64,000 nt of DNA from Verrucomicrobiales bacterium (GCA_965224535.1 CBDCZR010000019.1:271527-335526), one strand, 5' to 3'. Shown: positions 11,686-64,000, counted from the stretch's first letter. The notes: a model not told the origin generated them from the letters alone. Program-made: numbers and translations.

Positions 11686-11696
11686 GGTTGCTCGCC

Positions 11697-11775
11697 GGTC
11701 AGATGATCTCCGCGATTGGCCGCCCCTCGTCCAACAAATGCACCGGCCGGCCGGTGAAATCCTCGAACGTGACCT
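11697..11775. repeat. 79-bp direct repeat, copy 1; a duplicated copy of the 3' end of the DUF1501 gene at 12863..14194
   Basis: 78 of 79 nt identical to 12861..12939 (single difference tccaac versus tctaac). Confidence 0.9.
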
Positions 11776-12421: not shown

Positions 12422-12789
12422 CCATTTGCGGTGGGTTTCAACACCTGAGCCACACGCTCTTCGAACTGGTCGAGCCAATCCAGCTTTCCGCGATCGATGA
12501 CTTCAAGTTCCGTTTCGGAGAGGGCTTGAAGCGCGGCTAGTTCCCGGGTTTCTGGCTCGGTCAGACCACGATCATACTTTTGGTCGATCAGGTCCAGACG
12601 CCGACAGTTGAGTTCATCATTGGTAGGCCGATTGGGAGGTTGGGTAGCTTCGGTCAAAATCCATTTTGCCCACTGATCCCACGGAACGGCACGCGATTCC
12701 GCCTGGGAACGGAGGGCATCCAACAACTGGTCATCGATGGCAAGGGTCGCACCAATGTCGCACCTTAGAAGAGCGCTGGAAATATGCAA
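12418..12789 (-). CDS. ribbon-helix-helix (CopG/antitoxin-like) protein, translationally coupled to the HNH gene
   Basis: ATLAIDDQLLDALRSQAESRAVPWDQWAKWILTEA fits a beta-strand plus two helices RHH fold. Confidence 0.45.
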   Translation of the reverse strand: MHISSALLRCDIGATLAIDDQLLDALRSQAESRAVPWDQWAKWILTEATQPPNRPTNDELNCRRLDLIDQKYDRGLTEPETRELAALQALSETELEVIDRGKLDWLDQFEERVAQVLKPTANG

Positions 12790-12860
12790 ATTCCTGAAAG
12801 GAGCCTCGAAGAATCACTCAAGGCCCAAATCGACCGGCTAGCCGCAGGCGAGTGTGACGC

Positions 12861-12939
12861 GGTCAGATGATCTCCGCGATTGGCCGCCCCTCGTCTAACA
12901 AATGCACCGGCCGGCCGGTGAAATCCTCGAACGTGACCT
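12861..12939. repeat. 79-bp direct repeat, copy 2; the native in-frame 3' end of the DUF1501 gene
   Basis: Encodes the C-terminus ...VTFEDFTGRPVHLLDEGRPIAEII followed by the stop. Confidence 0.9.
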
Positions 12940-14194: not shown

Positions 14195-14410
14195 GCCCTG
14201 GCAATTGCGGCCAGCGCGGGTTGAGGGGTTAGAGATGGTGAGCATAGCTTGTTTCTCCCGGGGTTTTCCCCTACACGTCGGGAGAAATCACCCCCTTTCA
14301 AGTCGCGGAACGCGCAAAATTTCGGGAACTGGCTTGGGGGGCGCAGAAAAATCCTTGGCAGGGCGAATTTCCCCCCTTATGTCAGCGGGGTTAACGCGAT
14401 ATTTCCCACG

Positions 14411-28900: not shown

Positions 28901-30965
28901 CAAACTGTGCGGCGCCTTCTTCCCGCGATAGCTCAAGGTTTCGTGCTTTTAGTGTGGCTTTGACCTGATTCAGTTGCGCGTAAATCGTGGAGATTTGATC
29001 GACGATTTGCGTAGTTTGCGTGGCATCCTCGATCTTGAGATTTCCGACGATATCGATCAACATTTCCAACTCGCCGGCAGCCTCGTTTAGGCCCGTTTCG
29101 ATCTCCTCAGCCTCAACCACCTTTTTAATCTTCGCGATTGCGGCTTCGCGGTCAGCGACGCGCTTGCGATAGGGCTCGAGAGCAGCATCGGTTTGCAGGA
29201 AATCCACGCATTTTCGTGAGATCGCCTCCGACGCTTCTGCAACGTCGGCCTCCATGGCGCCGACACGGTCCAAGTTCACGTAGCGGATGTCCCGCAGCGA
29301 GATCAATTCCCCGCGCAATTCGCGCAAATCCCCTAAAATGTGAACGAATCCCAGGATATCGTCCGGCATCATGTGCTTAGCCTTGCCAACAATCTCGGTT
29401 GTGCGTTTGGAGAGCCTTCCCGTCTCCTCGCCGGCTGTTTTGCGCAAGCGCACCACCTTTTCAAACTCGGAGATCGCCGCTTCAGCCGCGGATTTAACAT
29501 CCATCAGCGGAACCTTCAGTTGATGGGTTTCCGGCCGGCCGATCCAAAAGTAGCTATCGCAAATATCCCCGGATCGCTTCGCCAAATCGAGATACAACCC
29601 CTCAAACGAGTCGTCTTTGGCCAAGAGCGTTAGAATCTCCTGACATTCCGCCATGCACCGTACCAAATCCGCGTTGCCGATTTTGTAGAGATAAGTGCCG
29701 GTTTTCTCTTTATTTGCGATGCTGCCTGCATCGCTAACATACGGTGTCTGCCATACCTGGAGAACGTGATGTTTTTGCGGATTGCTTTCCGCCTTGAAAT
29801 AGACCAGCTCACCGTTGGAAAATATCGTGAAACCGTGGCAAACAATCGGGGTTTCGACGTTTTGGGTGATGATGTTGTAGGATAGCAGCGTGTATTGCCC
29901 CGAACGCCGGTTGTAGAAGACAAAAAGGTGGTCTTCGCCGTTGGGAGACGCAATCCGGCGCTCGAAGAGCATATTCTCCAGATCGCTGTCAAAAACCTTG
30001 ACCTCGCCAATCTGCAACAGGTAACCGTTGGCGAAAATCAGGCCATGATCGTCCGGCAGCAACACGCAAGAGTCCCGAATCCCCGGGACGGAATAGACCT
30101 TGCGGATCTTCTCGTTGTAGACCAGGTAGCGGTAGTCTTTTTCCTGATAGGGCAGGATTTTTAGCAGAATCAGGCTACCCACGCACGCGTAGAAGATTTC
30201 GGCGTCGTCCAGGGTTTGATCGGCGGCCGCAACAGCCTCGGCGTAGATTCCTTCGCCCGTGTCGGTATTGTCCTCAATTTTGATGGTCAGGTCTCCCCCA
30301 ACCGTTTCCACAAATATCCGGTCTTCGATGGAAATATGGGGATGTTCTCCGTAGCGGTGAAGGTCCCGGTGGGCGCGTTTCCACACAAACTCCTGCTGGG
30401 GCGGGAAAACGTACTCATGGTCGAATCGGTTGCCCAGATAGTGCAATTCGCCGTCGGCTAGAGCCCACTTGAACACCTTGACGTCCGCCACTTCTCGTCC
30501 CACGCGAAAGGCCATGAAAAGATGCGGGCCTGCGATCATAAACTTTGCGAAAACAGCCTGCCGATAATATTTGTAGAGGTAGGCGAAATCGCGCTCGAAT
30601 TGTTCGTCGCGAATCAAATCCAGGCCAACCTGATGGAAGCTATGATCCGCTGCCTCATAGCGATAAACCGCGAAGACGTCTGAGAGTTCTGTCTGCAATT
30701 TCAGCCCCAAATGTACGTTGTAACCAAACAAGAACAGGTTTCCGCCGCAGGCCACCATATCACGCGGAACACAATTATGTTGCGTGGTGATCCGCTCCGT
30801 GCCAACCAGGCTTGCCTCAATAGCGCCAAATACTTCCTGCCGGTCCGCGTTCAGGCTGGCAAGCCGCTTCCGAAGCTGCGCGCCGTGAGTTTCGAGGCGC
30901 CCACGAATTATTTCGTAGGCGCCCCCTTCAAGCGCAGCAGGTTTTTCTGCGTTTTCCTCTGCCAT
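25953..30965 (-). CDS. giant (1670 aa) protein with a MoxR/AAA_5-like AAA+ ATPase core; flotillin-operon partner
   Basis: Walker A LLISPPGYGKTT, Walker B IMIYLDDIQH, and a MoxR-like sensor segment VAVVMAGNPYTESGGKFQIPDMLANRADTYNL near residues 1240-1400. The ~1200-aa N-terminal part has no recognised motif and includes a coiled-coil-like E/K/L-rich segment. Starts 9 bp after the flotillin stop. Confidence 0.8.
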   Translation of the reverse strand: MAEENAEKPAALEGGAYEIIRGRLETHGAQLRKRLASLNADRQEVFGAIEASLVGTERITTQHNCVPRDMVACGGNLFLFGYNVHLGLKLQTELSDVFAVYRYEAADHSFHQVGLDLIRDEQFERDFAYLYKYYRQAVFAKFMIAGPHLFMAFRVGREVADVKVFKWALADGELHYLGNRFDHEYVFPPQQEFVWKRAHRDLHRYGEHPHISIEDRIFVETVGGDLTIKIEDNTDTGEGIYAEAVAAADQTLDDAEIFYACVGSLILLKILPYQEKDYRYLVYNEKIRKVYSVPGIRDSCVLLPDDHGLIFANGYLLQIGEVKVFDSDLENMLFERRIASPNGEDHLFVFYNRRSGQYTLLSYNIITQNVETPIVCHGFTIFSNGELVYFKAESNPQKHHVLQVWQTPYVSDAGSIANKEKTGTYLYKIGNADLVRCMAECQEILTLLAKDDSFEGLYLDLAKRSGDICDSYFWIGRPETHQLKVPLMDVKSAAEAAISEFEKVVRLRKTAGEETGRLSKRTTEIVGKAKHMMPDDILGFVHILGDLRELRGELISLRDIRYVNLDRVGAMEADVAEASEAISRKCVDFLQTDAALEPYRKRVADREAAIAKIKKVVEAEEIETGLNEAAGELEMLIDIVGNLKIEDATQTTQIVDQISTIYAQLNQVKATLKARNLELSREEGAAQFGAKLKLLNQAVVNYLDLCSTPEKCEEFLTKAMIQLEELEGEISEFDEYVEQIGEKRDEIYNAFESRKLSLTEARNRRAGTLMKSGERILTGIRHRVEQFESINEINGYLAGDLMVEKIRNVIADLKVLGDTVKAGDLQTQLNSLREESVRQLKDRKELYVDGKNVIQFGEHKFSVNNQELELTVVPHDEQMCLHLTGTGFFEAIEEEEFLETSDIWDQSVLSENGEVYRAEYLAYQYIQTHPAGAATLEDVQRFAATRYDEGYTKGVHDRDALKLIKKLLTLREKVGLLRYNSKARALGLLFWECWSDGDAKALSEAKLLAFGDMQNTFGANGTAPADHVGDLVRGIRDSGLSGDSLLVEEAAEYLFHELSTPKEFTVSREASDLVTHFKTAIAGKQAEKTFQEAQAPLKANPRARYAVILDWVRGFLATGHEPEIEADFAEEAAVHLLRGGFRKKDVVKTNLAAKLSGFSGSHPAIGNGGTYAFHFNRFIDKLRRFDREIVPKFRSYSRLKTQLVEKTRETMRLQEFKPRVMSAFVRNRLIDQVYLPLAGANLAKQLGTAGEDSRTDRMGLLLLISPPGYGKTTLMEYIANRLGITFIKVNGPAIGHNVTSLDPNEAPNASAREEVDKLNLALEMGDNIMIYLDDIQHCHPEFLQKFISLCDAQRKMEGVWKGEAKTYDLRGKKVAVVMAGNPYTESGGKFQIPDMLANRADTYNLGDIIGGHGSAFKASYIENALTYNAVLSKLAARSQQDVYAVMKIAETGTQEGIDFQGNYAVEEIDELVDVTRKLFRVRDTILRVNQQYIASAAQQDEYRTEPAFRLQGSYRNMNRIAERVLALMTEKEVEALIMDHYENEAQNLTTGAEANLLKFREMEGILTPQEAKRWEDIKAKFQRNLLMGGGGENDPVSRVVGQLAVFGEGLERIREALEGASQPKLAESTLQQLEAIIRGIRSVPVDVEVKIVPSNGDDPVVETQIQQGKG

Positions 30966-30974
30966 GACGTTGTG

Positions 30975-33026
30975 TTAGCTGGTTAAGCGGCGAATCACTT
31001 TTTCCGCCTTTTCATCGGCCAGGCCAAAGCGTTCGGCGGCGCCCAACAGCATCTGGAGCTTGTTTCGGGTCCCGTTGTCATCGTTCGAAGCCGCCACCAT
31101 TTGGCTCAAAACCGCGGAGATGGTTAGATTTTTGAGATCCTCGCTGGAGAACCCGAATTGCTCCACCCAGTTGCGCATTTGCGCCTTAAAATAGTCGGGA
31201 TCAGAGCTAAAAAAGGTCTCTTTTACGTCGGTTAGTGCGGCGCTGTTGTTCACCAGGCGATCGACAGCTTTGCCGTTCATGATCGACTTGGTGATTTTAT
31301 CGAAAAACTCCGTTTCACCGCCCACAATGTCAATACGAGCGCTCTTCAGCGCTTCGCCGACGATCATTGCTTGTTCGGCGGCGACATCGCGGCGGATGTT
31401 GATCTCGGCAAGCTCGATTTCCTTTTGTTTTTCCAGTTCGAGCTTGAATTCTTCGTGCTCGCGCCCCACCTCGTCGAAGAGCTTCATCGCTTCGGCTTTT
31501 TCGTTAATGCTATTGGCCTCAGCTTCGCCTTGAGCGCGAATCACATCAGCTTCCCCAAGCCCTTCGGCAGCCGATTCGGCGGCAATGGCCTCGGCAAGCA
31601 TCTTTTTCGCTGTTGCCTCTTTTTCCGCGGCGGTTTGTTGGGCTTCGGCTTCAATCACAACTTCCTCAGCGTGCAATTCCGCAGCGGTTTTGCCGGCCTC
31701 GGCGTCTTTCACGCGGACGTATAAGTCCTGATCGGCCTCCAACTTTGCGGCCTCCTGTTTCGCCTCGGCTTCCTTGATCGTTTTGACCAATTCTTCTTGA
31801 GCTTCCTTTTCCGCCTGGGTAATGGCGACTTGTTTTTCCCGTTCGGCAGTGGCGTGTGCCTCGGTATCCAGGACGCGTTGTTGTTCTTCAACAACTGTCT
31901 TCTCCAAGGCCACGCGTTCTTTTATTACTTGCTGGATGTCGCGCTTTTCGCCTTCCACCGCTTTATCACGCTCGATCGCCTTCAACTGCGTGACTCGCTC
32001 GCGGTCGATTACTTCCATTTCGCGGTCCCGCTCGACGCGTTCCAGTTCCACCGCGTCGGTCCGCTCCTTGTTGCGTTGCGCGACCAGAACGGTGCGCTCT
32101 TTGTTCTCTTGCGCGACGTGTGCTTCTTCTTCAGCGGCGATCCGGGCCTGTTCTTCGCGTAGCCATTGCTCGTGTTTGACTTGTTCGGATTCCGCTTTCT
32201 CGCGCGCTTGCACCACGGCAATTTCCCGCCCTTGCTTGGCCTCGGTTTCGGCCAACTGACGTTCGAGTTCCAAAATCGCCTCGCGCGCCTCCACGTCTTG
32301 TTGTTTGATAACGCGTTCCTCATCCCGGCGAGCGAAGTTGGCGCCTTTTTTCTCCTGCGCGGTTTGTTCGGTGATTTTTCGGATGCCTTCGGAATCCAAG
32401 ACGTTGTCCGGATCCAGGTCCTCGATCGGCGTTTGTTCCAAATGGTCGATTGCCGCGTCATCAAGGACAAAACCGTTCAGATCGGTGCCAATGACCTTGA
32501 GAATCTCGCTGCGGAAGGTATCGCGCTCTTGATACAAATCGACGAAGTTAAACTGCTTGCCGACAGTTTTAAGCGCTTCGGAAAATTTGGCGTCAAAAAG
32601 CGCCCGAATCTCTGCTTCGCTCGAAGCGCGGTCGCAGCCGATGGATTGCGCGACTTTCAGGACGTCTTCCTTGGCGTTGTTGACGCGAACGAAGAATTTC
32701 ACCTTGATGTCTGCGCGGATGTTATCCTTACAAATGAGGCCGTGACCGTGTTTGCCGGAGCGATCGATTTCCACGCTTTTTAACGATATATCGATCGATT
32801 CCGCCCGGTGAACGACCGGCACAACAAAAATGCCGTCAAAGGCGATTTCCGTGCCGCCCATTCCGGTCCGAACAAGCGCCGTGCCTTTCTTAACCTTGCG
32901 GTAAAGCGTGGCGTAGAGGATGCCGGCGGCTAGAACAAAGAACAGGATAGCTCCAAGAACGGCAGCGATCATTGTTCCGACAAATCCCAGCATGGGCTGG
33001 ATTTCCACAAGTGCGTATATTGGCAT
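30975..33026 (-). CDS. flotillin / SPFH (band 7) family protein (YqiK-like) with a long E/A/K/R-rich coiled coil
   Basis: N-terminal TM helix plus SPFH region (GTALVRTGMGGTEIAFDGIFVVPVVHRAESIDISLKSVEIDR...); ~350 aa of EAxxK heptads; flotillin C-terminal region. Confidence 0.85.
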   Translation of the reverse strand: MPIYALVEIQPMLGFVGTMIAAVLGAILFFVLAAGILYATLYRKVKKGTALVRTGMGGTEIAFDGIFVVPVVHRAESIDISLKSVEIDRSGKHGHGLICKDNIRADIKVKFFVRVNNAKEDVLKVAQSIGCDRASSEAEIRALFDAKFSEALKTVGKQFNFVDLYQERDTFRSEILKVIGTDLNGFVLDDAAIDHLEQTPIEDLDPDNVLDSEGIRKITEQTAQEKKGANFARRDEERVIKQQDVEAREAILELERQLAETEAKQGREIAVVQAREKAESEQVKHEQWLREEQARIAAEEEAHVAQENKERTVLVAQRNKERTDAVELERVERDREMEVIDRERVTQLKAIERDKAVEGEKRDIQQVIKERVALEKTVVEEQQRVLDTEAHATAEREKQVAITQAEKEAQEELVKTIKEAEAKQEAAKLEADQDLYVRVKDAEAGKTAAELHAEEVVIEAEAQQTAAEKEATAKKMLAEAIAAESAAEGLGEADVIRAQGEAEANSINEKAEAMKLFDEVGREHEEFKLELEKQKEIELAEINIRRDVAAEQAMIVGEALKSARIDIVGGETEFFDKITKSIMNGKAVDRLVNNSAALTDVKETFFSSDPDYFKAQMRNWVEQFGFSSEDLKNLTISAVLSQMVAASNDDNGTRNKLQMLLGAAERFGLADEKAEKVIRRLTS

Positions 33027-33038
33027 TTTCTATTTGGG

Positions 33039-33722
33039 TTACGATGTTATTTCCGATTCTGGCTTCAGGGACCGGACGGTGTACCAATCCGAGTTTTCCT
33101 CCTTCGCCACGACTAAAATGGATGTGCCCTTGGGCAGGCTTTTGCCTTCGACAGATAGACGCGCGTTTAAAAGCAAGGGTGCGCCTTCTGCCTCTACTTC
33201 CACCTGGCCGAACTCGTGATCCAAATTTGGCGAACGCACAAATCCGGAGCGTCCAATGACCGGTTCCTGCTTTTCCGCGGATTTGATCATTCTTCCGAAA
33301 GGTTTCAGCGGTATGGTGAGCCACTTTGCGGATAACACGCCCACGATTATAGCGCCAAACGCGACCGCGGCAGCTATCATTCCATCATGGGAGGGGTTCA
33401 GATAGTGATTGCCCAAAAGGTTGGCGGCCCAGGTAAACAAGGTAAGTAGCGATAACACCAAAATGATGGGCACGTCAGACGCGTTCATGAAATTCATCAT
33501 CGATTGAATGATGCCCGGTCCGCCGGTTTCTCCGTCATTGCTATCGGCGCCCTCTACGCTGGCGTCACCATCTATTTCGGTATCGACTTGCAACAGACCA
33601 TCCAGCATCTCAAAGTCCAGTGCGCCCAACATAGCGATGAGCCAATATAAAATGACACAACCCAGGAGAATGGTAAACGGCATGTTATGCGGTAGAATGG
33701 CTTCTTGAAGAAATTCTCTCAT
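33039..33722 (-). CDS. NfeD/YqiJ-like membrane protein (TM helices plus C-terminal OB-fold-like beta domain)
   Basis: Hydrophobic helices (ILLGCVILYWLIAMLGAL, IILVLSLLTLFTWAANLL, AAVAFGAIIVGVL) followed by a beta-rich C-terminus VEVEAEGAPLLLNARLSVEGKSLPKGTSILVVAKEENSDWYTVRSL. Sits 12 bp upstream of the flotillin gene, as in the E. coli yqiJ-yqiK arrangement. Confidence 0.65.
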   Translation of the reverse strand: MREFLQEAILPHNMPFTILLGCVILYWLIAMLGALDFEMLDGLLQVDTEIDGDASVEGADSNDGETGGPGIIQSMMNFMNASDVPIILVLSLLTLFTWAANLLGNHYLNPSHDGMIAAAVAFGAIIVGVLSAKWLTIPLKPFGRMIKSAEKQEPVIGRSGFVRSPNLDHEFGQVEVEAEGAPLLLNARLSVEGKSLPKGTSILVVAKEENSDWYTVRSLKPESEITS

Positions 33723-42053: not shown

Positions 42054-42812
42054 GTGGGCGATTTGAAGTTCGAGCACCTAACCGGCTTCCTGGCCCAGCG
42101 CAAAGCGGAGGAATGGTCCTCCAGCACGTTGCGGCTCAACAACCTCGCGCTGAAGGTTTTCTTCCGTTTCCTGCACCGGCGCGGAATTTTACCCAAAGAC
42201 CTGGGCGAACCGCTCATCTCCCCAAAGCTGGAGCGCCACCTCCCCGGCACGCTCAACGAAACAACCATCGAATCCATCATCGAGGCCATCGATCCGGACG
42301 GCGAACGCGGCTTGCGCGACCGCGCCATCATCGAGCTGTTCTATGGCTCCGGCCTGCGCCTCACCGAGCTGGTGGAACTGACCCTCGACGCCGTAAATCT
42401 GGACGAGCGCATGGTCCGCGTGCTCGGCAAGGGCGGCAAAACGCGGCTCGTCCCCATGGGGCAGCGCGCCAGGGAAGCGATCGTGGCTTACCTGACCAAG
42501 GAACGCCCCCGCTTCGTCAATCCCCGCAGCGGAATCGAGATTTTTCTGTCGATTCGCGGCTTCAAACTGACGCGCCAGCGGATTTGGCAGATTTTGCGCG
42601 AGCGCGCCGTTGAAGCCGGGTTTGAGCCCACCATCATCCATCCGCACCTGTTGCGGCACTCATTTGCGACGCATTTGCTCGGCAACGGAGCGGATTTGCG
42701 CGTCATCCAGGAAATGCTCGGCCACGCGGACATCGCCTCCACGCAAATTTACACGCACGTGGACGGCAAACGGCTCAAAGAGGTCCACCGCCAGTTTCAT
42801 CCGCGGGGTTGA
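42054..42812 (+). CDS. xerD: tyrosine site-specific recombinase, XerD/XerC-like. The conserved N-terminal domain continues in frame upstream to about 41907, where there is no ATG/GTG/TTG.
   Basis: Catalytic region ...LLRHSFATHLLGNGADLRVIQEMLGHADIASTQIYTHV with R..H..Y. The upstream in-frame translation ESAIDQFIRHLATERGLSTNYQLSVQQSLEHFRAWLE is the canonical XerD N-terminus. Confidence 0.8.
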   Translation: MGDLKFEHLTGFLAQRKAEEWSSSTLRLNNLALKVFFRFLHRRGILPKDLGEPLISPKLERHLPGTLNETTIESIIEAIDPDGERGLRDRAIIELFYGSGLRLTELVELTLDAVNLDERMVRVLGKGGKTRLVPMGQRAREAIVAYLTKERPRFVNPRSGIEIFLSIRGFKLTRQRIWQILRERAVEAGFEPTIIHPHLLRHSFATHLLGNGADLRVIQEMLGHADIASTQIYTHVDGKRLKEVHRQFHPRG

Positions 42813-42947: not shown

Positions 42948-43023
42948 GGTGACCGTAGCTCAGCGGTAGAGCCCCTGATTGTGGTTCAGGATGTCGCGGG
43001 TTCGAATCCCGTCGGTCACCCCA
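42948..43023 (+). tRNA. tRNA-His (anticodon GTG) with encoded G-1 and 3' CCA
   Basis: Manual fold: G-1, acceptor GTGACCG/CGGTCAC, D-arm GCTC-AGCGGTA-GAGC, anticodon loop TTGTGGT (GTG), T-arm GCGGG-TTCGAAT-CCCGT, discriminator C then CCA. G-1 with C73 is diagnostic of tRNA-His. Confidence 0.85.
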
Positions 43024-55108: not shown

Positions 55109-56067
55109 GGGTTTTTTTGAGGTTTAAAGGGACATCAGCCCGTAAATCCGCGAAATCCGGGTTCGATCCGGCTAAATCTGTGAACCCCTAAGAAACCTCC
55201 GCTTCACTGGCGATGCAAGCGGATCGGCTTCGCGGTTTTCACGGATTTGCACCGATAAAACAGAGGTATTCACCGACATTGGACCGGGACATGATTGTTC
55301 TACACGCAAAACGCGGCTGGTAACTTTCGCAAGTGTGCCCTGGAATCTGCCCCGAATTGCGTCCTGTCGCCATTTGGCGTTGTCCAGTTGGGATTTGGTT
55401 GACCGTGCGGTGAATTTCGGCTGTGTGGTTTCGGTTAGTGGCCCGAATCCGGGGAAACTGTGATTATGGGCGGCCCTTGAGGGGATGTTAACGCGAGAAG
55501 GAGGCAGAGTAGGCCGACTAGGAAATCGGAATCCGACTACAGTTGAAGGGAAATTTGGTTGGAACAGTGGTCAAAAGCTGGCCGCCTCAAGACTGCCCGA
55601 AGTGCACCGATACGTCTTCGCGAAAGAGCAGAAATAGTCCTTTTGGCTGCCGGGGGGTTGGAAAATCGCTAAAAGCTTGAATCAAGATCTAGGAAAGGTT
55701 GGACGCTGGAGGGCGTCGCTACGCAGAAGCTGGACTTCAAGGGATGCCATCGCACCTTCGCTCCATTTCAGACAGGCGCTAGATGCTCTGGAATAGACGC
55801 TTACGAAACTTAGGCATCCAACATCCAATCTCAAGTTTCCATTCTGTTTGCTACTATGAAACGGATGTTCGCCCAATCTCCGGTACGCCCGAACTCCCGT
55901 CGCCCCTCGATCCGACTTCTTGAACGCACCCTAGCGCCAAAACAACATTTTGTGGTGCCGATGCCAGATTAACAAAAAGCCGCGAAGTGAAAGATTTTTG
56001 CCTGAATCGTGGAAATTATAATCACCTCAAAATCAGCCAGTTAAACGTTTTGTTACTCAAGAGCTGC
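55109..56067. promoter_or_regulatory. about 960-bp ORF-poor, lower-GC leader or promoter region upstream of the giant PSCyt gene
   Basis: No ORF longer than 67 aa on any frame; composition visibly more AT-rich than flanking genes. Confidence 0.3.
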
Positions 56068-57741
56068 CTAACGAAGCAACGCATCCATTCCCTGACGAAT
56101 CAGAGCATCCATCTGCTCCTCCTCCAGGGCGCTTCCATCGCAAGAAAGCTGCACGACCAGGTTTCCTTTCCGGCATTGAACCACCGTTGACGTGCTTTCT
56201 CCCAGCAAGAAAGAATCGGTCTGAAATCGCAGAGCAGATCCTTCCGCCCCGGAAGCTCCTTTGTAGTCATGCACGGCGGAAGCTTTCAGTTTGACCAGCG
56301 CCGCCGCTCGCATTTCGGCCATGTTTTGCCGATTTAGCTCCTCCATCGCCTTCACCATTTGCCCGGCGCCGGCTTCAGAGTTGAATTCGAACAACGCCAG
56401 CTCCATTCCGGCTCCGAGACTCGTCGGATCCAGCATCAACACCACCGCCGCCTCTCTCAACTCCCGCATGATGTGCTGGCGCTGATCCCTGGGCAGGGTG
56501 GCAAGGCAGCTTTGCACCTGGAAATCGCCCATCGGCATGGCCAAGTGCTTCCAATCCTCCTGGCCGGCCGCTTTGGGGACAAACGCGAACCGCTCCTGAT
56601 AGTCGGGAAGCGGTGTGGAATTCGGCGAGTAGCTCTCCGGGCGGGTAATCATCGACGTACGCGAGGGAGGGTTTTTCATGATTTTCCAGATTGCCTCGAT
56701 GCCGCCACGCTGGTGCTGATGCGCCATGAATCGCTCCCCACCGAGATAGATTTCCTCCCAAAGAACGGCGTCCGCCATGGCGACCCGATCGATCAGCCAC
56801 GGATCCTCCTCCATTTCGGCCATCAACAAATCCGACGCCGCTTTGGCCGCCGCATCGAAACCCAGGCGCTTAGCCGCAGCATTCTGGATGAACACCGCAT
56901 GCCCCTCAATCGTGGCGTTGAACGCCTGCATCGCATCCGGAGACTCCACGTTGGCGGTAGCGTCAGCCAGCCCCACCTCCTGATCCTGCAAACCATGCGT
57001 CAATTCGTGGGCGATCACGATTTGAAGAATTTCTTCCTCGAGACCAGGGGCGATTCCCACCGCTTCAATCACCGCGCTGATGTTTTGCGGCATGAGATAA
57101 ACCGTGTGATCCTCCACCCCGTACTTTCCCATGAGCGAGGGGGCGAATAGACTGGCGCTGAGGTAGGCCCGCAGATAAATCATGGCTTTCGGCGTCTCCG
57201 GCAAACGTTTCTCGAACTGGGGAACCAAATCGCGGGCCAAAACGTGAACCATTTGCATCGTGCCAACTGCCTTGACCTTCGGGGAAGCATCAAACTTCCT
57301 CGCGTTCAACTCCTCCACCAATGGGGTTAGCTTCGCTGCGTGGGCCTGGATTTGAGCTTCGGTAAACGCCGGTTCGCGACCCGCCAACTTCTGGTCCAGG
57401 TAGGCCAGCATTGCCTCCATCTTGGCGTTGGCTTCCGTGCTGGAGTCCATCAAGTCGGTTAGCCCTTGCTTCCCGCGATCCAAAGTCTCCTCGCCAATTT
57501 CGCGAGCCCGGTTTACCAAACCGCCAAAAAATCCGGATTTCTTCTCCTCCTCAGCTTTTGGGGCTTCCTTTTTGTCCTCGGTTTTCGTTAGCCGGTTGAA
57601 GAGCCCTCCAAAGCCTCCGCTTTCTTTTTTGTTCTCTTCAGCAATCGCGGGAAAAGCGAGAGCCAGCAACACTATCATTCCCAGAATCTGTCTCTTACTG
57701 ATAGGAATTTGCTTTTGGCCCTGCCGCGTCCGGGTCATCAT
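56068..57741 (-). CDS. secreted HExxH zinc-metallopeptidase-like protein
   Basis: IVIAHELTHGLQDQE motif; signal-like MIVLLALAFPAIA. The start is ambiguous: 57741 (MMTRT) or 57678. Confidence 0.55.
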   Translation of the reverse strand: MMTRTRQGQKQIPISKRQILGMIVLLALAFPAIAEENKKESGGFGGLFNRLTKTEDKKEAPKAEEEKKSGFFGGLVNRAREIGEETLDRGKQGLTDLMDSSTEANAKMEAMLAYLDQKLAGREPAFTEAQIQAHAAKLTPLVEELNARKFDASPKVKAVGTMQMVHVLARDLVPQFEKRLPETPKAMIYLRAYLSASLFAPSLMGKYGVEDHTVYLMPQNISAVIEAVGIAPGLEEEILQIVIAHELTHGLQDQEVGLADATANVESPDAMQAFNATIEGHAVFIQNAAAKRLGFDAAAKAASDLLMAEMEEDPWLIDRVAMADAVLWEEIYLGGERFMAHQHQRGGIEAIWKIMKNPPSRTSMITRPESYSPNSTPLPDYQERFAFVPKAAGQEDWKHLAMPMGDFQVQSCLATLPRDQRQHIMRELREAAVVLMLDPTSLGAGMELALFEFNSEAGAGQMVKAMEELNRQNMAEMRAAALVKLKASAVHDYKGASGAEGSALRFQTDSFLLGESTSTVVQCRKGNLVVQLSCDGSALEEEQMDALIRQGMDALLR

Positions 57742-58246
57742 TGGCCCGGGGTTGGAGGGGGGCCAATAGGGGGAGGAAGGGCAATTTTTGGCCTTCATCA
57801 GAGCGACTCATGACAGAACCGGGACGCCGATTCAAGGATTTTTGCGCATCTGGGTCGAATTAGCGACCAATTCCGGGATTCTACGCGGGTTCGGGACACA
57901 ATGCGGCGGTTCCCAGTTCTTGGCGGAAATAAAACTGACTGAACCCTGCTGGCGTCGCGTCGATCTGGCAAATCAGTGGGTCAGTTCGCCCAAAAAACCG
58001 GCATATTTTCCTGCGATCCCGGATCGCCCTCGAGAATGAGGGTGCGTTCTTCGTCGAGTTGGAGTTCCGGGTGGCGTGGCTCGGGGCGTTCCGGCACTCA
58101 ACATTCCCACCAGATTGGCGGGGGTGGTTCGGTTCGCCGGCCCTGGACGACGGAAAACGCCACAATCCCAGGTGTCGCCACTTCCAATCGGCTCGTGGCC
58201 ATTACGGAACGGAAAGTGAAGGAAGTCCGTGTTCGCACTGTGGGGG

Positions 58247-58936
58247 TTAGGAATGCCCGGAATCCTGGCGCCGGCGCGAGGGCAAAAATGGCGCAACCAG
58301 GAAAATTAGCGCCACGAGCAGCAAAATCGCCGAACTGGGCCGCGCGAGCAGGTAACCTGGGCTGGAGATCGCCAAGCCTTGCACCAAATTCACCTCCGCC
58401 AGTGGCTGGAGGACGAATCCGAGCACGAACGGCGCGAGGGGGATGCCGAAGCGGTTCATCGCCAGGCCCAGCAGGCCGAAGCCGAGCATGGACCACACGT
58501 CGAACATGCGGTTGGCCAGGGCGTAGCTGCCTACCACGCAAAAAATCAGCACCGCCGGGATGAGCAGCCAGCGCGGGATTTCCAGCAGTTTGCGCGCTAA
58601 TCCCGCGCCGAACCACATGAGCGCAAACATGACCAGGTTGGCGATGAGATAGGCGCTGGTGATGGTCGAGACGACTTCCGGGTTGTTGTCGAAAAGCAGC
58701 GGACCGGGCGTCAGGCCGTGCAAAATCAGCGCGCCGAGCAAAATGACGTCGATGACGCTGCCGGGGATGCCCAGGGCGATGAGCGGGACCAATGCGCCGC
58801 CGACGGTGGCATTGTTCGCGGCTTCACTGGCCACGACGCCGGAATCCGCGCCTTGGCTGAATTTTTCGCGGTCGCGTTTCCAACAGTAAAGATGTTTGAA
58901 TGTAAATTTGCTGCAAAGCCATGTTCCAACAGTCAA
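58247..58936 (-). pseudogene. truncated 3' fragment of a tctA paralogue (the C-terminal ~200 aa only)
   Basis: 58281..58876 aligns by eye to 61023..61618 (the tctA 3' end) at roughly 90-95% identity. Homology stops abruptly at 58876 and is replaced by AT-rich sequence. Confidence 0.75.
58281..58876. repeat. imperfect direct repeat (about 596 bp), copy A of the tctA 3' end
   Basis: See pseudogene above; begins at the stop-codon region and ends at ...gaatttttcgcggtcgcg. Confidence 0.8.
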
Positions 58937-58973
58937 ATTGTTTTAGTTTTAAAATAAATTATCTGGGAAAATG

Positions 58974-59363
58974 TCACGTCCCCGAGGTAACCCAAGCGAA
59001 GTTAGCCAGGTCATCCCTTATCCAGATTGACAGAACGATCCACGGATCACCGTTATCCAAAGTATATACCCAGCTGACAAATTCTTCTGAAATCGGCTCA
59101 ATTGAATCAGGCGGACCAAAGATCCTGAGAATCTCCTTTGACTTGAGCTGATTGACAGGTTTACCTTCCAAGGTAGAGGACGGCAAAAGCCTACTCAATT
59201 TTTCGTAAGCTTTAAGTCTCTCTACTCGATTCGTTCGAAAAGTAGCTGAAGCCGCTATTTCTGAGTCTGATAACTCAATTGAAACCTGGCCGTTTACAAT
59301 GGTTGAAAGCAGAAAAAATAAGGCGGCGAGAATTCCGAGCCCGCGCAAGGATGTTAAGTTCAT
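58974..59363 (-). CDS. small secreted protein of unknown function, encoded in the low-GC island
   Basis: Signal peptide MNLTSLRGLGILAALFFLLSTIVNGQ; AT-rich codon usage unlike the host; its ATG overlaps the upstream stop (ATGA). Confidence 0.5.
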   Translation of the reverse strand: MNLTSLRGLGILAALFFLLSTIVNGQVSIELSDSEIAASATFRTNRVERLKAYEKLSRLLPSSTLEGKPVNQLKSKEILRIFGPPDSIEPISEEFVSWVYTLDNGDPWIVLSIWIRDDLANFAWVTSGT

Positions 59364-60436
59364 TTGATTTCAAAGGTTGGTGTATTAGGTGGATTTGCCA
59401 CATCAATGTCGTCCGCTTGGTATTCCCAAGTTAGCTCAAGCTTTGTTGTAAGGTCGTGGCCCCTCACTTTGAGCGTTTGTGATTTCGTTCCAAAAAGTTT
59501 TTGTTTCAAGGCGAAAGCCTTAGCACCGAAACTGTTATTCTTTGGGATGCCAAGCTTGAACGCCTTCCATTGTGCCCTATCTGCGGCCGTCGCAATTAGT
59601 CTCTTTCCAACAGTTTCTCCTAGGGACTTTTGATCTTCGATCTTTCCATCTTTAAGTTCGCCTGATGGCAACCTAATCGGTACATTCAAACGAGATTTGC
59701 CGGCGATCGTCCCTTTTCCTACCGTCTTTATGGTTTCCTTCACAACTCTCATTCCGTCAAAAACGGAATCCAATGTCTCACCGTATTGATCTTTCAATGT
59801 GAATACGAGTACTTTGGTAGCTGCTGTGTGGTACATAGTATCAGTTGTCGTTCCGTTTGGTACATCGATTTCGCCAACAAAGGTCCATTTCTGGCCTGGA
59901 AGGCTTGAAGCGTTTTCATACGCAGTTTTTTCTTCTACTCCATCTTTATTCTTTTTCCATTCAGCGGTAAATGTCTTTGGAACCACAACCTGAACGGGCA
60001 CAGTAAAATCCTGACCCATTACCGTGCCAACCAACTCAAGGTCATTGCTTGTTTGCGGATTCAGCGTTTCTTTGATTCCTTCGATTTTCAAGGTTATCTT
60101 ACCCGTTGAAGTGTTGGGTTGACCTTCAATCTTTACATCCGCATCACCGCCAGTTGTTCCAGGGATAACAAAGGTTGCATTTGGGGCTTCAATGGGCGGC
60201 GTAACAGTTGCAATTACTTCCTTCACCAGCGGAGTGTCATCTTGGGCCTCACCTTCAGCTTTGATGTAACCCGTCTTAATGAGCGTTTCACTGTATGTGA
60301 TAGAGACTACAGCAGCACTGCTCGTGCTAGTGGCGGACGACAATGAACTGCTGCTGCTTGATGAACTGCTGCTGCTTGATGAACTGCTGCTGCTTGATGA
60401 ACTGCTGCTGCTTGATGAACTACTGCTGTTTGGCAT
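59360..60436 (-). CDS. beta-rich protein with a 30-residue N-terminal poly-Ser tract, encoded in the low-GC island
   Basis: MPN followed by S30 encoded by an 18-bp tandem repeat; T/V/K/G-rich beta-like remainder; AT-rich codon usage. Confidence 0.5.
   Translation of the reverse strand: MPNSSSSSSSSSSSSSSSSSSSSSSSSSSSSLSSATSTSSAAVVSITYSETLIKTGYIKAEGEAQDDTPLVKEVIATVTPPIEAPNATFVIPGTTGGDADVKIEGQPNTSTGKITLKIEGIKETLNPQTSNDLELVGTVMGQDFTVPVQVVVPKTFTAEWKKNKDGVEEKTAYENASSLPGQKWTFVGEIDVPNGTTTDTMYHTAATKVLVFTLKDQYGETLDSVFDGMRVVKETIKTVGKGTIAGKSRLNVPIRLPSGELKDGKIEDQKSLGETVGKRLIATAADRAQWKAFKLGIPKNNSFGAKAFALKQKLFGTKSQTLKVRGHDLTTKLELTWEYQADDIDVANPPNTPTFEIK
60341..60431. repeat. 18-bp tandem repeat (gatgaactgctgctgctt, about 5 copies, last copy degenerate) encoding poly-Ser
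   Basis: Four perfect 18-bp units at 60360..60413 plus flanking partial or degenerate units. Confidence 0.9.
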
Positions 60437-60997
60437 GAGAGGATCCTTTCCAGATGACTATCAAGTTTTGAAGTTACAGCATTCTGTACACCGGATCGCG
60501 AATTGTTAATAGGAATTTCCTATCGCAAGATAAAATAGTGGGTCGGACCGGAGAGTTGGAGGTTGAGGTACTACCGCTGGAAAATTTTGAGTACACCCTC
60601 TGAAATTAGGTGATTTAGTGAGGTAAAGAAAATTGTAACAACGATGTATGAGCGACCTATGATGAAAATCTCAGAAATTGCAGGGAGACGCAATTTTTAA
60701 CCCCTTCCGCGTCGGAAACGGGTTTCATGGCATGATTTGGCCAGATTTAGGGGGCAAAGTCAAGGATTTTAGCCATTTTAGCCGATTTTGTGATTGCCTT
60801 GAAGGGAATTTCTCCGTTTTCCGGTCGCCGGCTGGTTGGTCTGGATAGACCGGATGGATGCTAACGCCGTTTACAGTGTGCGTGCGATAAGTGGCGCTAC
60901 GCATTGGCAGCAACGCGCCTTGGTTGCCTTGCTTGACGGAAACTCTTTCTGATAGGTGACGTAGCCCTCGTTATATTGCAGGCATCACTCGTCCAGG

Positions 60998-62434
60998 CTA
61001 ACCCGATGGTCGCCAGCGCCTGGGCAAAAACGGCGCAACCAGGAAAATTAGCGCCACGAGCAGCAAAATCGCCGAACTGGGCCGCGCCAGCAGGTAACCC
61101 GGGCTGGAGATCGCCAAGCCTTGCACCAAATTCACCTCGGCCAGTGGTTGGAGGACGAATCCTAACACGAACGGCGCGAGGGGAATGCCGAACCGGTTCA
61201 TCGCCAGGCCCAGCAGGCCGAAGCCGAGCATCGACCACACGTCAAACATCCGGTTGGCCAGGGCGTAGCTGCCGACTACGCAAAAAATCAGCACCGCCGG
61301 GATGAGCATCCAGCGCGGAATTTCCAGCAGCTTGCGCGCCAATCCCACCCCAAACCACATCAGCGCAAACATGACCAGGTTGGCGACGAGATAGGCGCCG
61401 GTGATGGTCGAGACCACCTCCGGGTTGTTGTCGAAAAGCAGCGGCCCCGGCGTCAGGCCGTGCAAAATCAGCGCGCCGAGCAAAATGACGTCGATGACGC
61501 TGCCGGGGATGCCCAGGGCGATGAGCGGAACCAAAGCGCCGCCGACCGTGGCGTTGTTCGCGGCTTCACTGGCCACGACGCCGGAATCCGCGCCTTGGCC
61601 GAATTTTTCGCGGTCGCGAGCCACTCCTTTCGCCGCGCCGTAGGCGAGGAGCGATCCCACGTTTGCGCCAATTCCCGGCAAAACGCCGACAAAACTGCCG
61701 ATCATCGACGAGCGGATCAAATTCAGGGCCTGTTGCTTCCATTCGGCCAATTTCAGCAGTTTTCCGCCGCTTCCTTCGATCCGCTGGCCCGCTTCGTGCG
61801 GGTTGGCGGCCAGGCGAAACACCTCGCTGACGGCGAAAAGGCCGATCAACACCGGCAAGAGCCGAAAACCGTCGTCCAGCTCGGCAAAACCCAGGGTCAG
61901 CCGTGGTTTTGGGTTGGCGGGATTCGCGCCCGGCAAGGCGAAGAGCATGCCCAGAAAGACGCTGAGCAAGCCGCGTGCCAAATTTCCGCGGCTAATCGCG
62001 GCCACCAGCACCAGGGCCAGCATCACCAGGCTAAAGTAGTCGAACGGGTGCATGCGAATGGCCAGCGCGGCCACGGGCCGGGCCAGGGCCACCAACACCA
62101 GCCAGGAGAGGATTCCGCCCGCCAGCGAGGCCACGATTCCCAGCGCCAGGGCTCTTCGCGGCCGGCCTCCCGCAGCCATGGGATGCGCGTCCAGCGTCGT
62201 CATCATGGACGCCGGCGTCCCCGGCATTTTCAGCAACGTCGCGGTAATCAGACCCCCGCTCACCGACCCCACGTACATGGCCACGAGCAGCGCCAACGCC
62301 GGTTCGCGCTCCATCGCGAAGGTGAGGGGAACAGTCAGGGTGATGGCCATGGCCCCGGTCAAGCCGGGAATGGCGCCGACGACGATTCCCACGAAAACGC
62401 CGAGAAAAACCCAGGGAAGCAGATCGGGAGTCAT
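60998..62434 (-). CDS. tctA: tripartite tricarboxylate transporter, TctA large permease
   Basis: About 478 aa from MTPDLLPWVFLGVF; typical TctA helices (GALVPLIALGIPGS...); start overlaps the tctCB stop (ATGA at 62431..62434). Confidence 0.85.
   Translation of the reverse strand: MTPDLLPWVFLGVFVGIVVGAIPGLTGAMAITLTVPLTFAMEREPALALLVAMYVGSVSGGLITATLLKMPGTPASMMTTLDAHPMAAGGRPRRALALGIVASLAGGILSWLVLVALARPVAALAIRMHPFDYFSLVMLALVLVAAISRGNLARGLLSVFLGMLFALPGANPANPKPRLTLGFAELDDGFRLLPVLIGLFAVSEVFRLAANPHEAGQRIEGSGGKLLKLAEWKQQALNLIRSSMIGSFVGVLPGIGANVGSLLAYGAAKGVARDREKFGQGADSGVVASEAANNATVGGALVPLIALGIPGSVIDVILLGALILHGLTPGPLLFDNNPEVVSTITGAYLVANLVMFALMWFGVGLARKLLEIPRWMLIPAVLIFCVVGSYALANRMFDVWSMLGFGLLGLAMNRFGIPLAPFVLGFVLQPLAEVNLVQGLAISSPGYLLARPSSAILLLVALIFLVAPFLPRRWRPSG
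61023..61618. repeat. imperfect direct repeat, copy B (within intact tctA)
   Basis: Partner of 58281..58876. Confidence 0.8.
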
Positions 62435-63783
62435 GGGAGGTCGATGATGAGCACGTTTTGGAAGAGAAATTGCAGGCCGATCGCCAAAAAGACGCCGGCG
62501 CCGGCCACGATTCCGCGCGTTCGCAGGTTTGGGGCCAAAATCCAGCCGGCGGCGGCTGCGAAGAGCCCGGTGGCGAGCCAAAACGGGAGCCAGTGGAGGC
62601 TGAGGAGGCCCAGATACGCGCTCAGCAGGCCGACGATCGCCGCCGGCCGCCAATTTCGACGGGTTTTAACCGCGCTGGGGGCGATTTTTTGGCTTAAACC
62701 GAGAAAAACGCTCAAACCCGCGAAAATTCCCACACCGGTCAAAATTGCGCCGAAAACCGGCAAACCGCCCTTATTTTGCTCGGCGTCGTCCACTTTCAAT
62801 CCGACGATTTGCGCGCGTTTCGTCTCAATTTCCGCCAAAAGCGCCTCGCCGCGCAAAAACACGGGATCCACCGATTTTTCAGCGTATTTTTTGCGCAGCC
62901 AGTCGGAATTCATCGCGCGTTCGAGCAAATCCGCGATTTTTTCGATCCGGTCCGGCGGGGTTCCCTTCGGCGCCCACCAAAATTGGGTCGTGCCCGTCAC
63001 CAAATCGATTCCCTCCTCCCGCGCCGTCGGCGTTCCGGCCAATTTCGGGTGGCGTTCCGGTCCCAGATAGGCCAGCGCCTTCAACCCCCGCCGCGTCTCC
63101 GTTTTTCGAAACTGGAGGTATTCGGAAACGGAAAAAATCGACAAATCCACGTGCCCGCCGGCCAATTTTTCGAACCGGTCGGCCCCACCTTGCAGAGGCA
63201 CCATGCCAAACCGCGCCGAACCGTGCTTCTGCTCGAGCTGCAGGCCGATGAAATGGCTCGGAGCGCCCAAATTCATGCCGTATTTGACCTCGCCCGGCGT
63301 TTCCGCGGCTTCGTCCAGGGCTTGAGCGACAGACGTCCAACGTCCCTCCGGTCCGGTGCAAACCACGGTGTGGCTTGCGCCGGTGGAAGCGATCGGCACG
63401 AACGCCTCCGGCCCGTAAACGTGCCTCACTTGCTTGGCCGTCATGATGGCGTCGTGCAAGTTGAGGATGGTGTAGCCGTCAGGACGCGCGTTTTTCGCCC
63501 TGCGGCTGCCGATGGTGCCTCCAGCGCCCGGGACGTTGATGATGACCAACGGATGCGGGGAAAGATCGTCCCGGCGGATGGATTCTTGCACCACGCGAGC
63601 CAAGGAATCGCTTGCACCGCCCGGCCCAAATGGAACAATGACCTTGATAGCTTTGCGCGGAAATTCGTCCAAATTCTCCGAACCTGCTGAGTTCATGCAC
63701 AAACCCCAAAAAATTGCGAGCGCAAATCCCCTTGCATGTGGCCTCGTTAGAGTGTGTAGATAGGCTATGAAGCGTGTTTTCAT
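62431..63783 (-). CDS. tctC: fusion of TctC (Bug-family periplasmic binding protein) with a TctB-like 4-TM small permease
   Basis: N-terminal signal peptide and KAIKVIVPFGPGGASDSLARVV...PGAGGTIG...PDGYTIL (TctC/Bug). The C-terminal ~115 aa comprise four hydrophobic helices (LPVFGAILTGVGIFAGLSVFLGLS ... GIVAGAGVFLAIGLQFLF). Confidence 0.75.
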   Translation of the reverse strand: MKTRFIAYLHTLTRPHARGFALAIFWGLCMNSAGSENLDEFPRKAIKVIVPFGPGGASDSLARVVQESIRRDDLSPHPLVIINVPGAGGTIGSRRAKNARPDGYTILNLHDAIMTAKQVRHVYGPEAFVPIASTGASHTVVCTGPEGRWTSVAQALDEAAETPGEVKYGMNLGAPSHFIGLQLEQKHGSARFGMVPLQGGADRFEKLAGGHVDLSIFSVSEYLQFRKTETRRGLKALAYLGPERHPKLAGTPTAREEGIDLVTGTTQFWWAPKGTPPDRIEKIADLLERAMNSDWLRKKYAEKSVDPVFLRGEALLAEIETKRAQIVGLKVDDAEQNKGGLPVFGAILTGVGIFAGLSVFLGLSQKIAPSAVKTRRNWRPAAIVGLLSAYLGLLSLHWLPFWLATGLFAAAAGWILAPNLRTRGIVAGAGVFLAIGLQFLFQNVLIIDLP

Positions 63784-64000
63784 CACGTTGGGAATTCTCC
63801 TCGTCGTGCTGGTCCTGGCCGCGTGGCTTACGGTTACGTTATCCGTGGGCCGGTTTGCGGATTCTGACTACCTTGTGCGCCAGATTGAGTCCTCTTTCAA
63901 CTGCCGGGCGCAAATTGGCGAGGTAAAGCTCAACGCCTACACGGATCCCGCGCGCATGGAACTGACGGGGCTGGCGTTTGCCCCCCGCGATAAAACGGTG
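63767..64000 (+). CDS. partial (5' end only) AsmA-family-like envelope protein
   Basis: MKRVFITLGILLVVLVLAAWLTV N-terminal anchor followed by ...KLNAYTDPARMELTGLAFAP; open to the window end. Its start overlaps the divergent tctCB start. Confidence 0.45.
   Translation, partial: MKRVFITLGILLVVLVLAAWLTVTLSVGRFADSDYLVRQIESSFNCRAQIGEVKLNAYTDPARMELTGLAFAPRDKTV

Follow-up and report, generated by a model that had tools for sequence, protein, structure and literature searches.

The question raised by this locus is how an AT-rich, two-gene insert came to lie between an intact tctA gene and a second, truncated copy of the 3′-end of the same gene when no recombinase is encoded in or beside it. The locus was found at 58247–62434 in 64 kb of a Verrucomicrobiales contig (GCA_965224535.1, CBDCZR010000019.1, 271527–335526; this whole stretch is referred to as the window). 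An earlier sequence-only reading had described the layout and likened it to that left by integrative elements which target the 3′-ends of genes and carry a replacement end with them. Our analysis gives about an even chance to a different origin, in which DNA without a recombinase of its own would have entered at the 3′-end of tctA by a Campbell-type (single-crossover) insertion-duplication and left the present locus as its trace.

The tctA repeat and the enclosed insert

The features of the locus, in the direction of transcription of tctA, are:

62431–63786, minus strand: fused tctC-tctB gene, upstream of tctA and overlapping it by 4 nt (Pfam TctC 1.6e-22, TctB 1.2e-5)
60998–62434, minus strand: intact tctA, encoding 478 aa and serving the tctCB-tctA operon as its working gene (Pfam TctA 8e-140; identical to protein P0001, from a 412-kb contig)
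61009–61618, minus strand: repeat copy I, the last ~200 codons of intact tctA (ungapped match to 58267–58876)
58877–60997, no strand: AT-rich insert of foreign composition between the tctA copies (GC 0.41–0.47, against 0.58–0.64 in the flanks)
60437–60997, no strand: non-coding leader of 561 bp from the tctA stop codon to cargo gene 1 (AT-rich to ~60800, then GC 0.50–0.57)
59360–60436, minus strand: cargo gene 1, whose 358-aa product has tandem immunoglobulin (Ig)-like beta-sandwich domains after a poly-Ser N-terminus
60343–60432, minus strand: perfect 18-nt tandem repeat of ~5 units that encodes the poly-Ser tract (repeat search)
58974–59363, minus strand: cargo gene 2, whose 129-aa product has a hydrophobic, signal-like segment at its N-terminus
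58877–58969, plus strand: junction-proximal 93 bp with two imperfect repeats spaced by 46 bp, each headed by TTCCAACAGT
58267–58876, minus strand: repeat copy F, the 5′-truncated tctA fragment, from codon ~280 to the end (Pfam TctA profile positions 270–423 of 423)
57799–58246, no strand: GC-rich non-coding spacer between the stop codon of the fragment and a 576-aa gene with an HExxH motif; unrelated to the DNA downstream of intact tctA

Alignment of the two tctA copies revealed an ungapped direct repeat with an offset of 2742 bp, in which 58267–58876 matched 61009–61618, both on the minus strand. There were 33 mismatches within 58280–58876 (94.5% identity), and a blastn self-comparison of the window recovered the same repeat as 58269–58876 and 61011–61618 (94.1% identity over 608 bp). 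The insert and copy I (61009–61618) together made up one 2742-bp repeat unit. The first 18 bp of the repeat were identical between the copies, with the first difference thereafter, and identical runs of 80 bp, 56 bp and 46 bp were present inside it. The homology stopped sharply at 58876/58877, a joint whose two sides had no sequence in common. At the opposite edge it faded ~8–11 codons short of two different stop codons, such that the intact tctA ended in PRRWRPSG* and the fragment in PSRRRQDSGHS*. The frame of the fragment was open and ran through this distinct tail to a stop codon at 58247–58249. The order of intact tctA, foreign cargo and 3′-fragment of the same gene was therefore as the sequence-only reading had given it, as were the imperfect duplication of ~600 bp and its abrupt end at 58876; only the extent of the repeat, previously placed at 58281–58876 and 61023–61618, had to be lengthened slightly. 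The self-comparison of the 64-kb window showed a single other long near-identical repeat, of 80 bp, at 11.7/12.9 kb.

The insert was also set apart by its composition. Of all 1-kb GC values in the window, the two lowest fell within it, and the GC content at third codon positions (GC3) of the cargo genes was 0.43 and 0.47 compared to 0.56–0.80 in host genes. The codon-usage distance of the cargo was 0.39, against 0.16 ± 0.04 for host genes. The cargo is thus compositionally foreign, and GC, GC3 and codon-usage distance all agreed with the earlier description of an AT-rich island with non-host codon usage. The change in GC content was sharp at 58876/58877 and more gradual across 60800–60997.

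No integrase, transposase or tRNA gene was found in the insert or adjoining it with Pfam, NCBIfam, PHROGs, PADLOC and a tRNA scan, which agrees with the absence of an integrase already noticed from the sequence. A search of the 2.1 kb, including the small open reading frames (ORFs) of its non-coding parts, found no remnant of an integrase, excisionase or transposase. No terminal inverted repeats were found at 58877 and 60997, and blastn of the insert against plasmids and phages gave no DNA match. Rfam and tRNA scans of the island region were empty, the 561-bp leader having no Rfam match; between tctA and the cargo, minus-strand promoter-like sites did not exceed chance, and the search for a minus-strand terminator was negative. 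The sequence TTCCAACAGT occurred on the same strand at 58878, 58924 and 59605 (59605–59614). Chance would give 0.1 copies in the window; no others were present there, and all three were in the island. The first two form the 10-bp direct repeat of the sequence-only reading and the third is additional to it.

The sole tyrosine recombinase of the window was a housekeeping XerD (42054–42812; NCBIfam PRK00283, 288 bits), 16 kb from the island. Its gene had a host-like composition, lay directly upstream of the only tRNA gene of the window (tRNA-His, 42949–43023) and of RNase III, and had no evident link to the island.

Origin of the two tctA copies

Over 58267–58876 the copies differed at 37 positions, 28 of which were third codon positions. 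Copy F showed five conservative amino acid changes relative to copy I in 198 codons, and Nei-Gojobori estimates of synonymous (dS) and non-synonymous (dN) divergence were 0.193 and 0.014 respectively (omega 0.07). When a related contig, L010, was used as the third sequence, 19 changes were private to the fragment and only four of these were non-synonymous (P = 3e-6 under neutrality). The fragment contained no stop codon and no frameshift. The two copies are alleles of two separate functional tctA genes. Because their divergence was almost only synonymous and the frame was intact, the fragment had not decayed in place after a local duplication; its substitution pattern indicates descent from a separate functional tctA that was recently truncated. 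For annotation, this means that a partial-gene ‘pseudogene’ beside an intact copy can be an imported allele and not the result of local decay.

L010 (ENA ERZ25072999) was the closest relative, with a TctA of 98% identity and 93.6% nucleotide identity over 64000–61024 of the window. Identity to L010 along tctCB-tctA was uniform (92–95%) and showed no step at 61618. The dS to L010 was 0.269 for the repeat part of the working copy, 0.251 for the upstream part of tctA and 0.312 for the fragment. In the three-way comparison the working copy and the fragment were 94.5% identical, the working copy and L010 93.1%, and the fragment and L010 91.9%. Three-way site patterns revealed no switch along the 595 bp that would place a crossover point within the repeat.

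The direction of the changes was then polarised between 58282–58876, 61024–61618 and L010 7225–7819. On the coding strand, 15 of the 19 fragment-private changes were from G and one was from C, whereas changes private to the working copy were from C in nine of 12 cases and from G in two. On the L010 branch, 18 of 27 changes were from C. The spectra of fragment and working copy were complementary (15:1 vs 2:9; Fisher p = 1e-4 in a post-hoc test), and neither changed over along the 595 bp. Among host genes, the third-position G/C skew by strand varied too much to place the strand context of the fragment.

The working copy was read as native because its divergence from L010 was uniform and its mutation spectrum resembled that of L010, while the spectrum of the fragment was complementary. 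These observations point to the working copy as the orthologue inherited by vertical descent, and to an evolution of the fragment under some other strand context, be it another genome, an inverted location or an element. Only the last ~8–11 codons and the stop codon of the working gene look imported. On these small numbers the evidence points in the opposite direction to the replacement model of the sequence-only reading, in which the working 3′-end belonged to the element and the fragment was the displaced native end.

The order tctCB-tctA was shared by L003 and L010–L015. In L010, an AsmA-like gene, tctCB and tctA were followed by a convergent PQQ_2 gene and the gene for histidyl-tRNA synthetase (HisRS), without the island and without the fragment. 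In the more distant relatives L003 and L011–L015 (TctA 77–79% identity) a sulfatase gene followed tctA. The 576-aa gene beyond the fragment (56068–57798; HExxH motif IAHELTHG) had a weak match to the Hvo_1808 surface-protein family and no Pfam domain. Its relatives, none above 60% identity, came from Verrucomicrobiota, and in those with 60% identity it lay beside RNase H and DUF1015, not tctA. The upstream side of the operon was conserved and the 3′-end of tctA was a synteny break in every lineage compared, which explains why no clean empty site was available.

Insertion by a single crossover and its alternatives

Campbell-type integration yields, in order, the chromosome, a first copy of the homology, the insert and a second copy of the homology, so that the repeating unit is the insert plus one copy. 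Where the carried segment contains the 3′-end of the target gene, that gene survives whole. The tctA locus showed the corresponding arrangement: an insert between two copies of one chromosomal segment, copies of differing allelic origin, and no recombinase of the element. The unit of 2742 bp would comprise ~610 bp of tctA 3′ coding sequence, a new tail of 8–11 codons with its stop codon, the 561-bp AT-rich leader and the two coupled genes.

The event may be pictured in three steps. The AT-rich cassette would already have stood directly behind tctA in a related strain. A circle would then have formed from the cassette and the last ~600 bp of the donor tctA, with 58876/58877 as the illegitimate joint. 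After transfer, a single crossover would have joined this circle to the resident tctA; with its position at the outermost 3′ limit of the homology, the working gene would have received no more than its last few codons from the donor. The resident tctA would remain whole and functional with a new short tail, the cassette would come to lie behind it on the same strand, and the slice of donor tctA would be left as a promoter-less fragment, still in frame. The agent that we favour is homologous recombination by the host, given the identical runs in the 600-bp homology. Runs of 80 bp, 56 bp and 46 bp are sufficient for RecA-type recombination, and because they permit recombination the same repeats could delete the cassette or re-circularise it, as occurs at icd/icdC (PMC13626634).

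A second locus in the window (11696–12939) had the same layout. Its features are:

12863–14245, minus strand: intact DUF1501 gene
12418–12789: cassette gene with a weak CopG/RHH match (E 0.016)
11774–12478: cassette gene with a weak HNH match (E 0.002), its stop codon abutting the displaced repeat

The last 24 codons of the DUF1501 gene, its stop codon and 3 nt (12860–12939) were repeated at 11696–11775, where 79 of 80 nucleotides were identical. Between the repeats was a 1084-bp cassette of two co-oriented, coupled genes with a composition near that of the host. The two loci, ~46 kb apart, had different targets, different cargoes and repeats of different length (80 bp vs 610 bp), and neither had an integrase; no junction motif shared between them was found. 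A second target gene with the same layout fits a homology-driven, target-agnostic process better than it fits two dedicated integrases.

From the two loci a broader, distinctly unlikely proposal can be framed: that this lineage of marine Verrucomicrobiota harbours integrase-less mini-cassettes of 1–3 kb with a coupled gene pair, which would exist as non-replicating circles and use a slice of the 3′-end of a neighbouring gene as their homology address. They would integrate behind that gene by a single host-mediated crossover, leave it intact, be transcribed in its orientation and loop out again via the repeats, and the tctA and DUF1501/HNH loci would be members of different ages. If the single-crossover reading itself is right, small pieces of foreign DNA would be able to enter uncultured marine Verrucomicrobiota without a dedicated integrase, through carried homology to housekeeping genes and without damage to the target, and such gene gain would escape island finders that are based on integrases. 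The presence of two such scars in 64 kb suggests that this route may be common in the genome.

Parts of this picture have precedents. The microcin H47 island of E. coli has no recombinase gene, is bounded by extensive imperfect direct repeats and gives excision hybrids within segments of identity (PMC3191183; PMC5426353). It resembles the tctA locus as a small recombinase-less island between long imperfect direct repeats, and it provides a precedent for such an island that excises and integrates (PMC3191183). However, the H47 island is 13 kb, its repeats are not the 3′-end of a gene and its RecA-independent mobility was shown experimentally, whereas the tctA island is known from its sequence. 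The RME island of Vibrio cholerae inserts in recA and supplies a diverged functional copy (PMC4405046); like the tctA island it is located in a housekeeping gene, but it is large and carries a complete recA with 23% divergence. Duplications of gene 3′-ends around acquired DNA, and insertion-duplication itself, are already known, and on present evidence the locus does not establish a new principle. What is unusual is the combination of a 610-bp diverged repeat, no recombinase, a native-looking working copy, a companion case 46 kb away and a cargo module that is uncharacterised.

Several points weigh against a single-crossover origin. Most of what is known of Campbell-type insertion comes from laboratory use and from plasmids, and the natural formation and transfer of a small circle are assumed here; the circle, of 2.7 kb, would have had no replication or transfer function, so these two steps are purely conjectural. 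The crossover would have to lie at the outermost limit of the 600-bp homology, which is only one of many possible positions. A comparison with relatives, as the sequence-only reading had proposed, did yield a tctA locus without island and fragment in L010, but the DNA downstream of tctA in L010 was absent from the window, so this is not a clean empty site. No empty site with the same flanks was found in any collection searched, so that the case for insertion over some other rearrangement is indirect. Neither a donor allele nor a free or differently placed copy of the cassette was found among plasmids, phages, viral and metagenome contigs and protein collections. The donor allele and any paralogue are unsampled, because the protein collection held no tctA of >79% identity other than P0001 and P0002. 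The strand-bias argument is based on 31 polarised substitutions and one outgroup, tested after the pattern had been noticed, and the third-position G/C skews of both copies were within the range of host genes. Finally, a site-specific recombinase may act in trans, as only 64 kb of the genome is visible.

Of the alternatives, the one that survives best is a decayed site-specific integrative element, which we consider unlikely. It would have targeted tctA at codon ~280 and carried its own replacement 3′-end, in the manner of e14 and phage 21 at icd, such that the working last 600 bp would derive from the element and the fragment would be native; its integrase would have been lost or supplied in trans to a satellite. 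The closest parallel is icd of E. coli K-12, where the intact gene enters the prophage e14, the 3′-fragment icdC lies at the far end and the repeats can recombine (PMC13626634). When icd in e14 was compared directly with icdC, the 165 bp were 92.7% identical; third positions accounted for 11 of the 12 differences, and the two amino acid changes were conservative. The tctA repeat is likewise a diverged 3′-end repeat with mostly third-position differences (94.5%, 28 of 37 and five conservative changes). Both the layout and the substitution pattern therefore fit a site-specific element (PMC13626634) and, because icd/icdC shows the same signature, the icd-type analogy of the sequence-only reading was well chosen. 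Nevertheless, e14, at 15.2 kb, has intE and xisE genes of its own, whereas the tctA island is 2.1 kb with no recombinase. The e14 duplicate of 165 bp runs through the stop codon while the tctA repeat of ~610 bp ends before it, and 600 bp far exceeds known replacement ends, of which icd, at 165 bp, is an example. Unlike at icd/e14, it is the working tctA copy and not the fragment that looks native: the working 3′-end was native-like in divergence and bias, and the fragment was the odd one.

A site-specific element without its integrase would have company in the cis-mobilizable elements (CIMEs), decayed integrative and conjugative elements (ICEs) or integrative and mobilizable elements (IMEs) which keep attL and attR but have no integration or transfer genes (PMC5704250). 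That such elements are documented counts for this alternative, and the tctA island shares with them a cargo between direct repeats which include the 3′-end of the target gene and the lack of integration and transfer genes. CIMEs, however, are recognised by the att sites of an autonomous ICE or IME. For the tctA island no related autonomous element was found in any collection searched, and its repeats are long, diverged coding sequence in which no short att core could be told apart from the homology. The identical first 18 bp of the repeat could be a core and the three copies of TTCCAACAGT near the joint could be arm-type sites, but there are no inverted repeats, the 2.1 kb holds no integrase, excisionase or remnant of either, and the second locus, with its other target, would require a second specificity. 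Of the decayed or satellite element first proposed, then, the layout, the foreign cargo and the allelic nature of the copies were upheld, but the recombinase, att core, inverted repeats and parent element were not found.

We give a small chance to a tandem tct operon, in which the fragment would be what is left of a second, paralogous tctA after its 5′ part, together with tctCB, was lost on arrival of the cassette. Both copies evolved under purifying selection, and their mutual identity (94.5%) slightly exceeds that of the working copy (93.1%) or the fragment (91.9%) to the relative, which would suit duplication after the split or gene conversion. However, no remnant of tctC or tctB was found between the copies, and tblastx of the relatives' operons matched only the known genes and the fragment within the window. 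The loci of six relatives had one operon each and no second tctA, and only P0001 and P0002 exceeded 79% identity in the protein collection. Co-oriented tandem paralogues should also share a strand bias, whereas the spectra here are complementary, and the homology ends at coding sequence on both sides. The sequence-only reading had named a separate decayed tctCBA operon as the scenario that would overturn it; neither the window nor the loci of the six relatives gave it support.

A slim chance remains for a duplication-insertion in situ, which would have produced identical copies, the working tctA being overwritten later by the allele of a related strain through homologous recombination. The synonymous-only divergence would then be explained without an element-borne copy, and the second locus, with its 79 of 80 identical nucleotides, could represent a young stage. 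Against this, an extra event is needed whose tract ended exactly at the 3′ tail of the gene, and no divergence step was seen along the operon relative to L010. A native-like fragment and an imported working copy are predicted, the opposite of what the divergence and bias data indicate.

Very improbable, in our view, is that the locus was produced by assembly, through the threading of a population mixture (a free circle sharing the tctA segment, or two strain haplotypes) into one contig. The sequence seems to come from a 412-kb contig of metagenomic origin, the cargo proteins were absent from a collection of 15 billion proteins that did contain flanking proteins of the same contig, and two repeat-flanked cassettes occur in 64 kb. 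On the other hand, the joint 58876/58877 shares no sequence across its sides and so did not arise from repeat collapse. There are 33 differing sites between the copies, the longest identical run is 80 bases, and the 18 nt from the start of the repeat to the first difference correspond to no k-mer size in common use. Moreover, a free circle of such content would be the proposed intermediate of single-crossover insertion itself.

Two further candidates were rejected: a diversity-generating retroelement, as the mismatches fell at all four bases (G 19, T 9, A 6 and C 3 in the working copy), were mostly synonymous and were accompanied by no reverse transcriptase, and a transposon or insertion sequence, as there was no transposase, there were no terminal inverted repeats and the duplication was 610 bp of diverged sequence.

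The cargo genes and other features of the window

Cargo genes 1 and 2 overlapped by 4 nt (ATGA) and are translationally coupled, so that the pairing of a signal-peptide protein with a poly-Ser protein made in the sequence-only reading holds, as does its description of both as uncharacterised, since database searches gave no functional match. No family could be assigned to the 358-aa protein with Pfam, NCBIfam, PHROGs or PADLOC, and the 129-aa protein had no family or PDB match; PDB sequence searches with the cargo proteins gave nothing significant. A single-sequence structure model of the 129-aa protein was poor (predicted local distance difference test score, pLDDT, 43.5). Exact look-ups of both cargo proteins and the fragment ORF in a contig index and the 15-billion-protein collection gave no match, nor did a word-indexed search for homologues of the complete poly-Ser protein or single-protein scans of viral and metagenome contigs with the cargo.

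An exhaustive search with the 358-aa protein minus its poly-Ser tract revealed 33 weak relatives among 1.84 billion representatives. The best had an E-value of 1e-20 and 33% identity, and no homologue exceeded 36% identity or was obviously mobile. No close relative was found in this search, although the flanking proteins P0001 and P0154 of the same contig were present in the collection. The relatives shared motifs such as KDQ[YF]G..LDS.YDG and V.GH, and several carried signal peptides, extra Ig-like domains or dockerin. The genomic contexts of the family members were mutually unrelated and not obviously mobile. The family of cargo gene 1 is sparse and uncharacterised.

The two nearest relatives also had Ser-rich low-complexity N-termini. 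In the homologue on contig L023, a perfect repeat of 12 nt × 12 (5740–5895) encoded (SP)n at the same N-terminal position. These tandem repeats look like recent slippage expansions, and the length of the Ser tract may vary. On L023 the homologue of gene 1 was followed, with a 4-nt overlap, by an ORF of ~123 aa with a signal peptide, and on contig L019 a hydrophobic ORF occupied the same position, the contig ending 12 codons into it. The small partner proteins of the module copies could not be aligned with each other, and the upstream leaders of the three copies had no common sequence. Judged by this gene order, the cargo appears to be a conserved two-gene module that recurs in at least one unrelated contig (L023) and probably in a second (L019). 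From fold and architecture, we would guess that the product of gene 1 is probably an Ig-like protein of the envelope or surface that bears a Ser-rich stalk, and that of gene 2 a small exported partner.

Elsewhere in the window, ~960 bp between a 1712-aa PSCyt/PSD1/WD40 gene and the 576-aa gene (55109–56067; GC 0.47–0.55) contained no convincing ORF. At ~55.55 kb one frame of this section read ...RLRERAEIVLLAAGGLENR*, which resembles the helix-turn-helix of a transposase; it had no Pfam match. On the minus strand, 25953–33722 encoded a 1670-aa protein with DUF3686 (‘ATPase involved in DNA repair’), DUF7902 and AAA domains, followed by proteins of 683 aa and 227 aa with no Pfam match. The GC content of this block was slightly lower (0.50–0.55), and it could be a defence-like system. 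Between 12863 and 55108 there were many pairs of PSCyt/PSD1 (DUF1549/DUF1553) and DUF1501 genes, with DUF1501 at 12863, 19915, 40012 and 48282 and PSD1/PSCyt at 21234, 46200 and 49970. Such abundance is characteristic of the Planctomycetota-Verrucomicrobiota group and agrees with the verrucomicrobial names borne by the best TctA matches.

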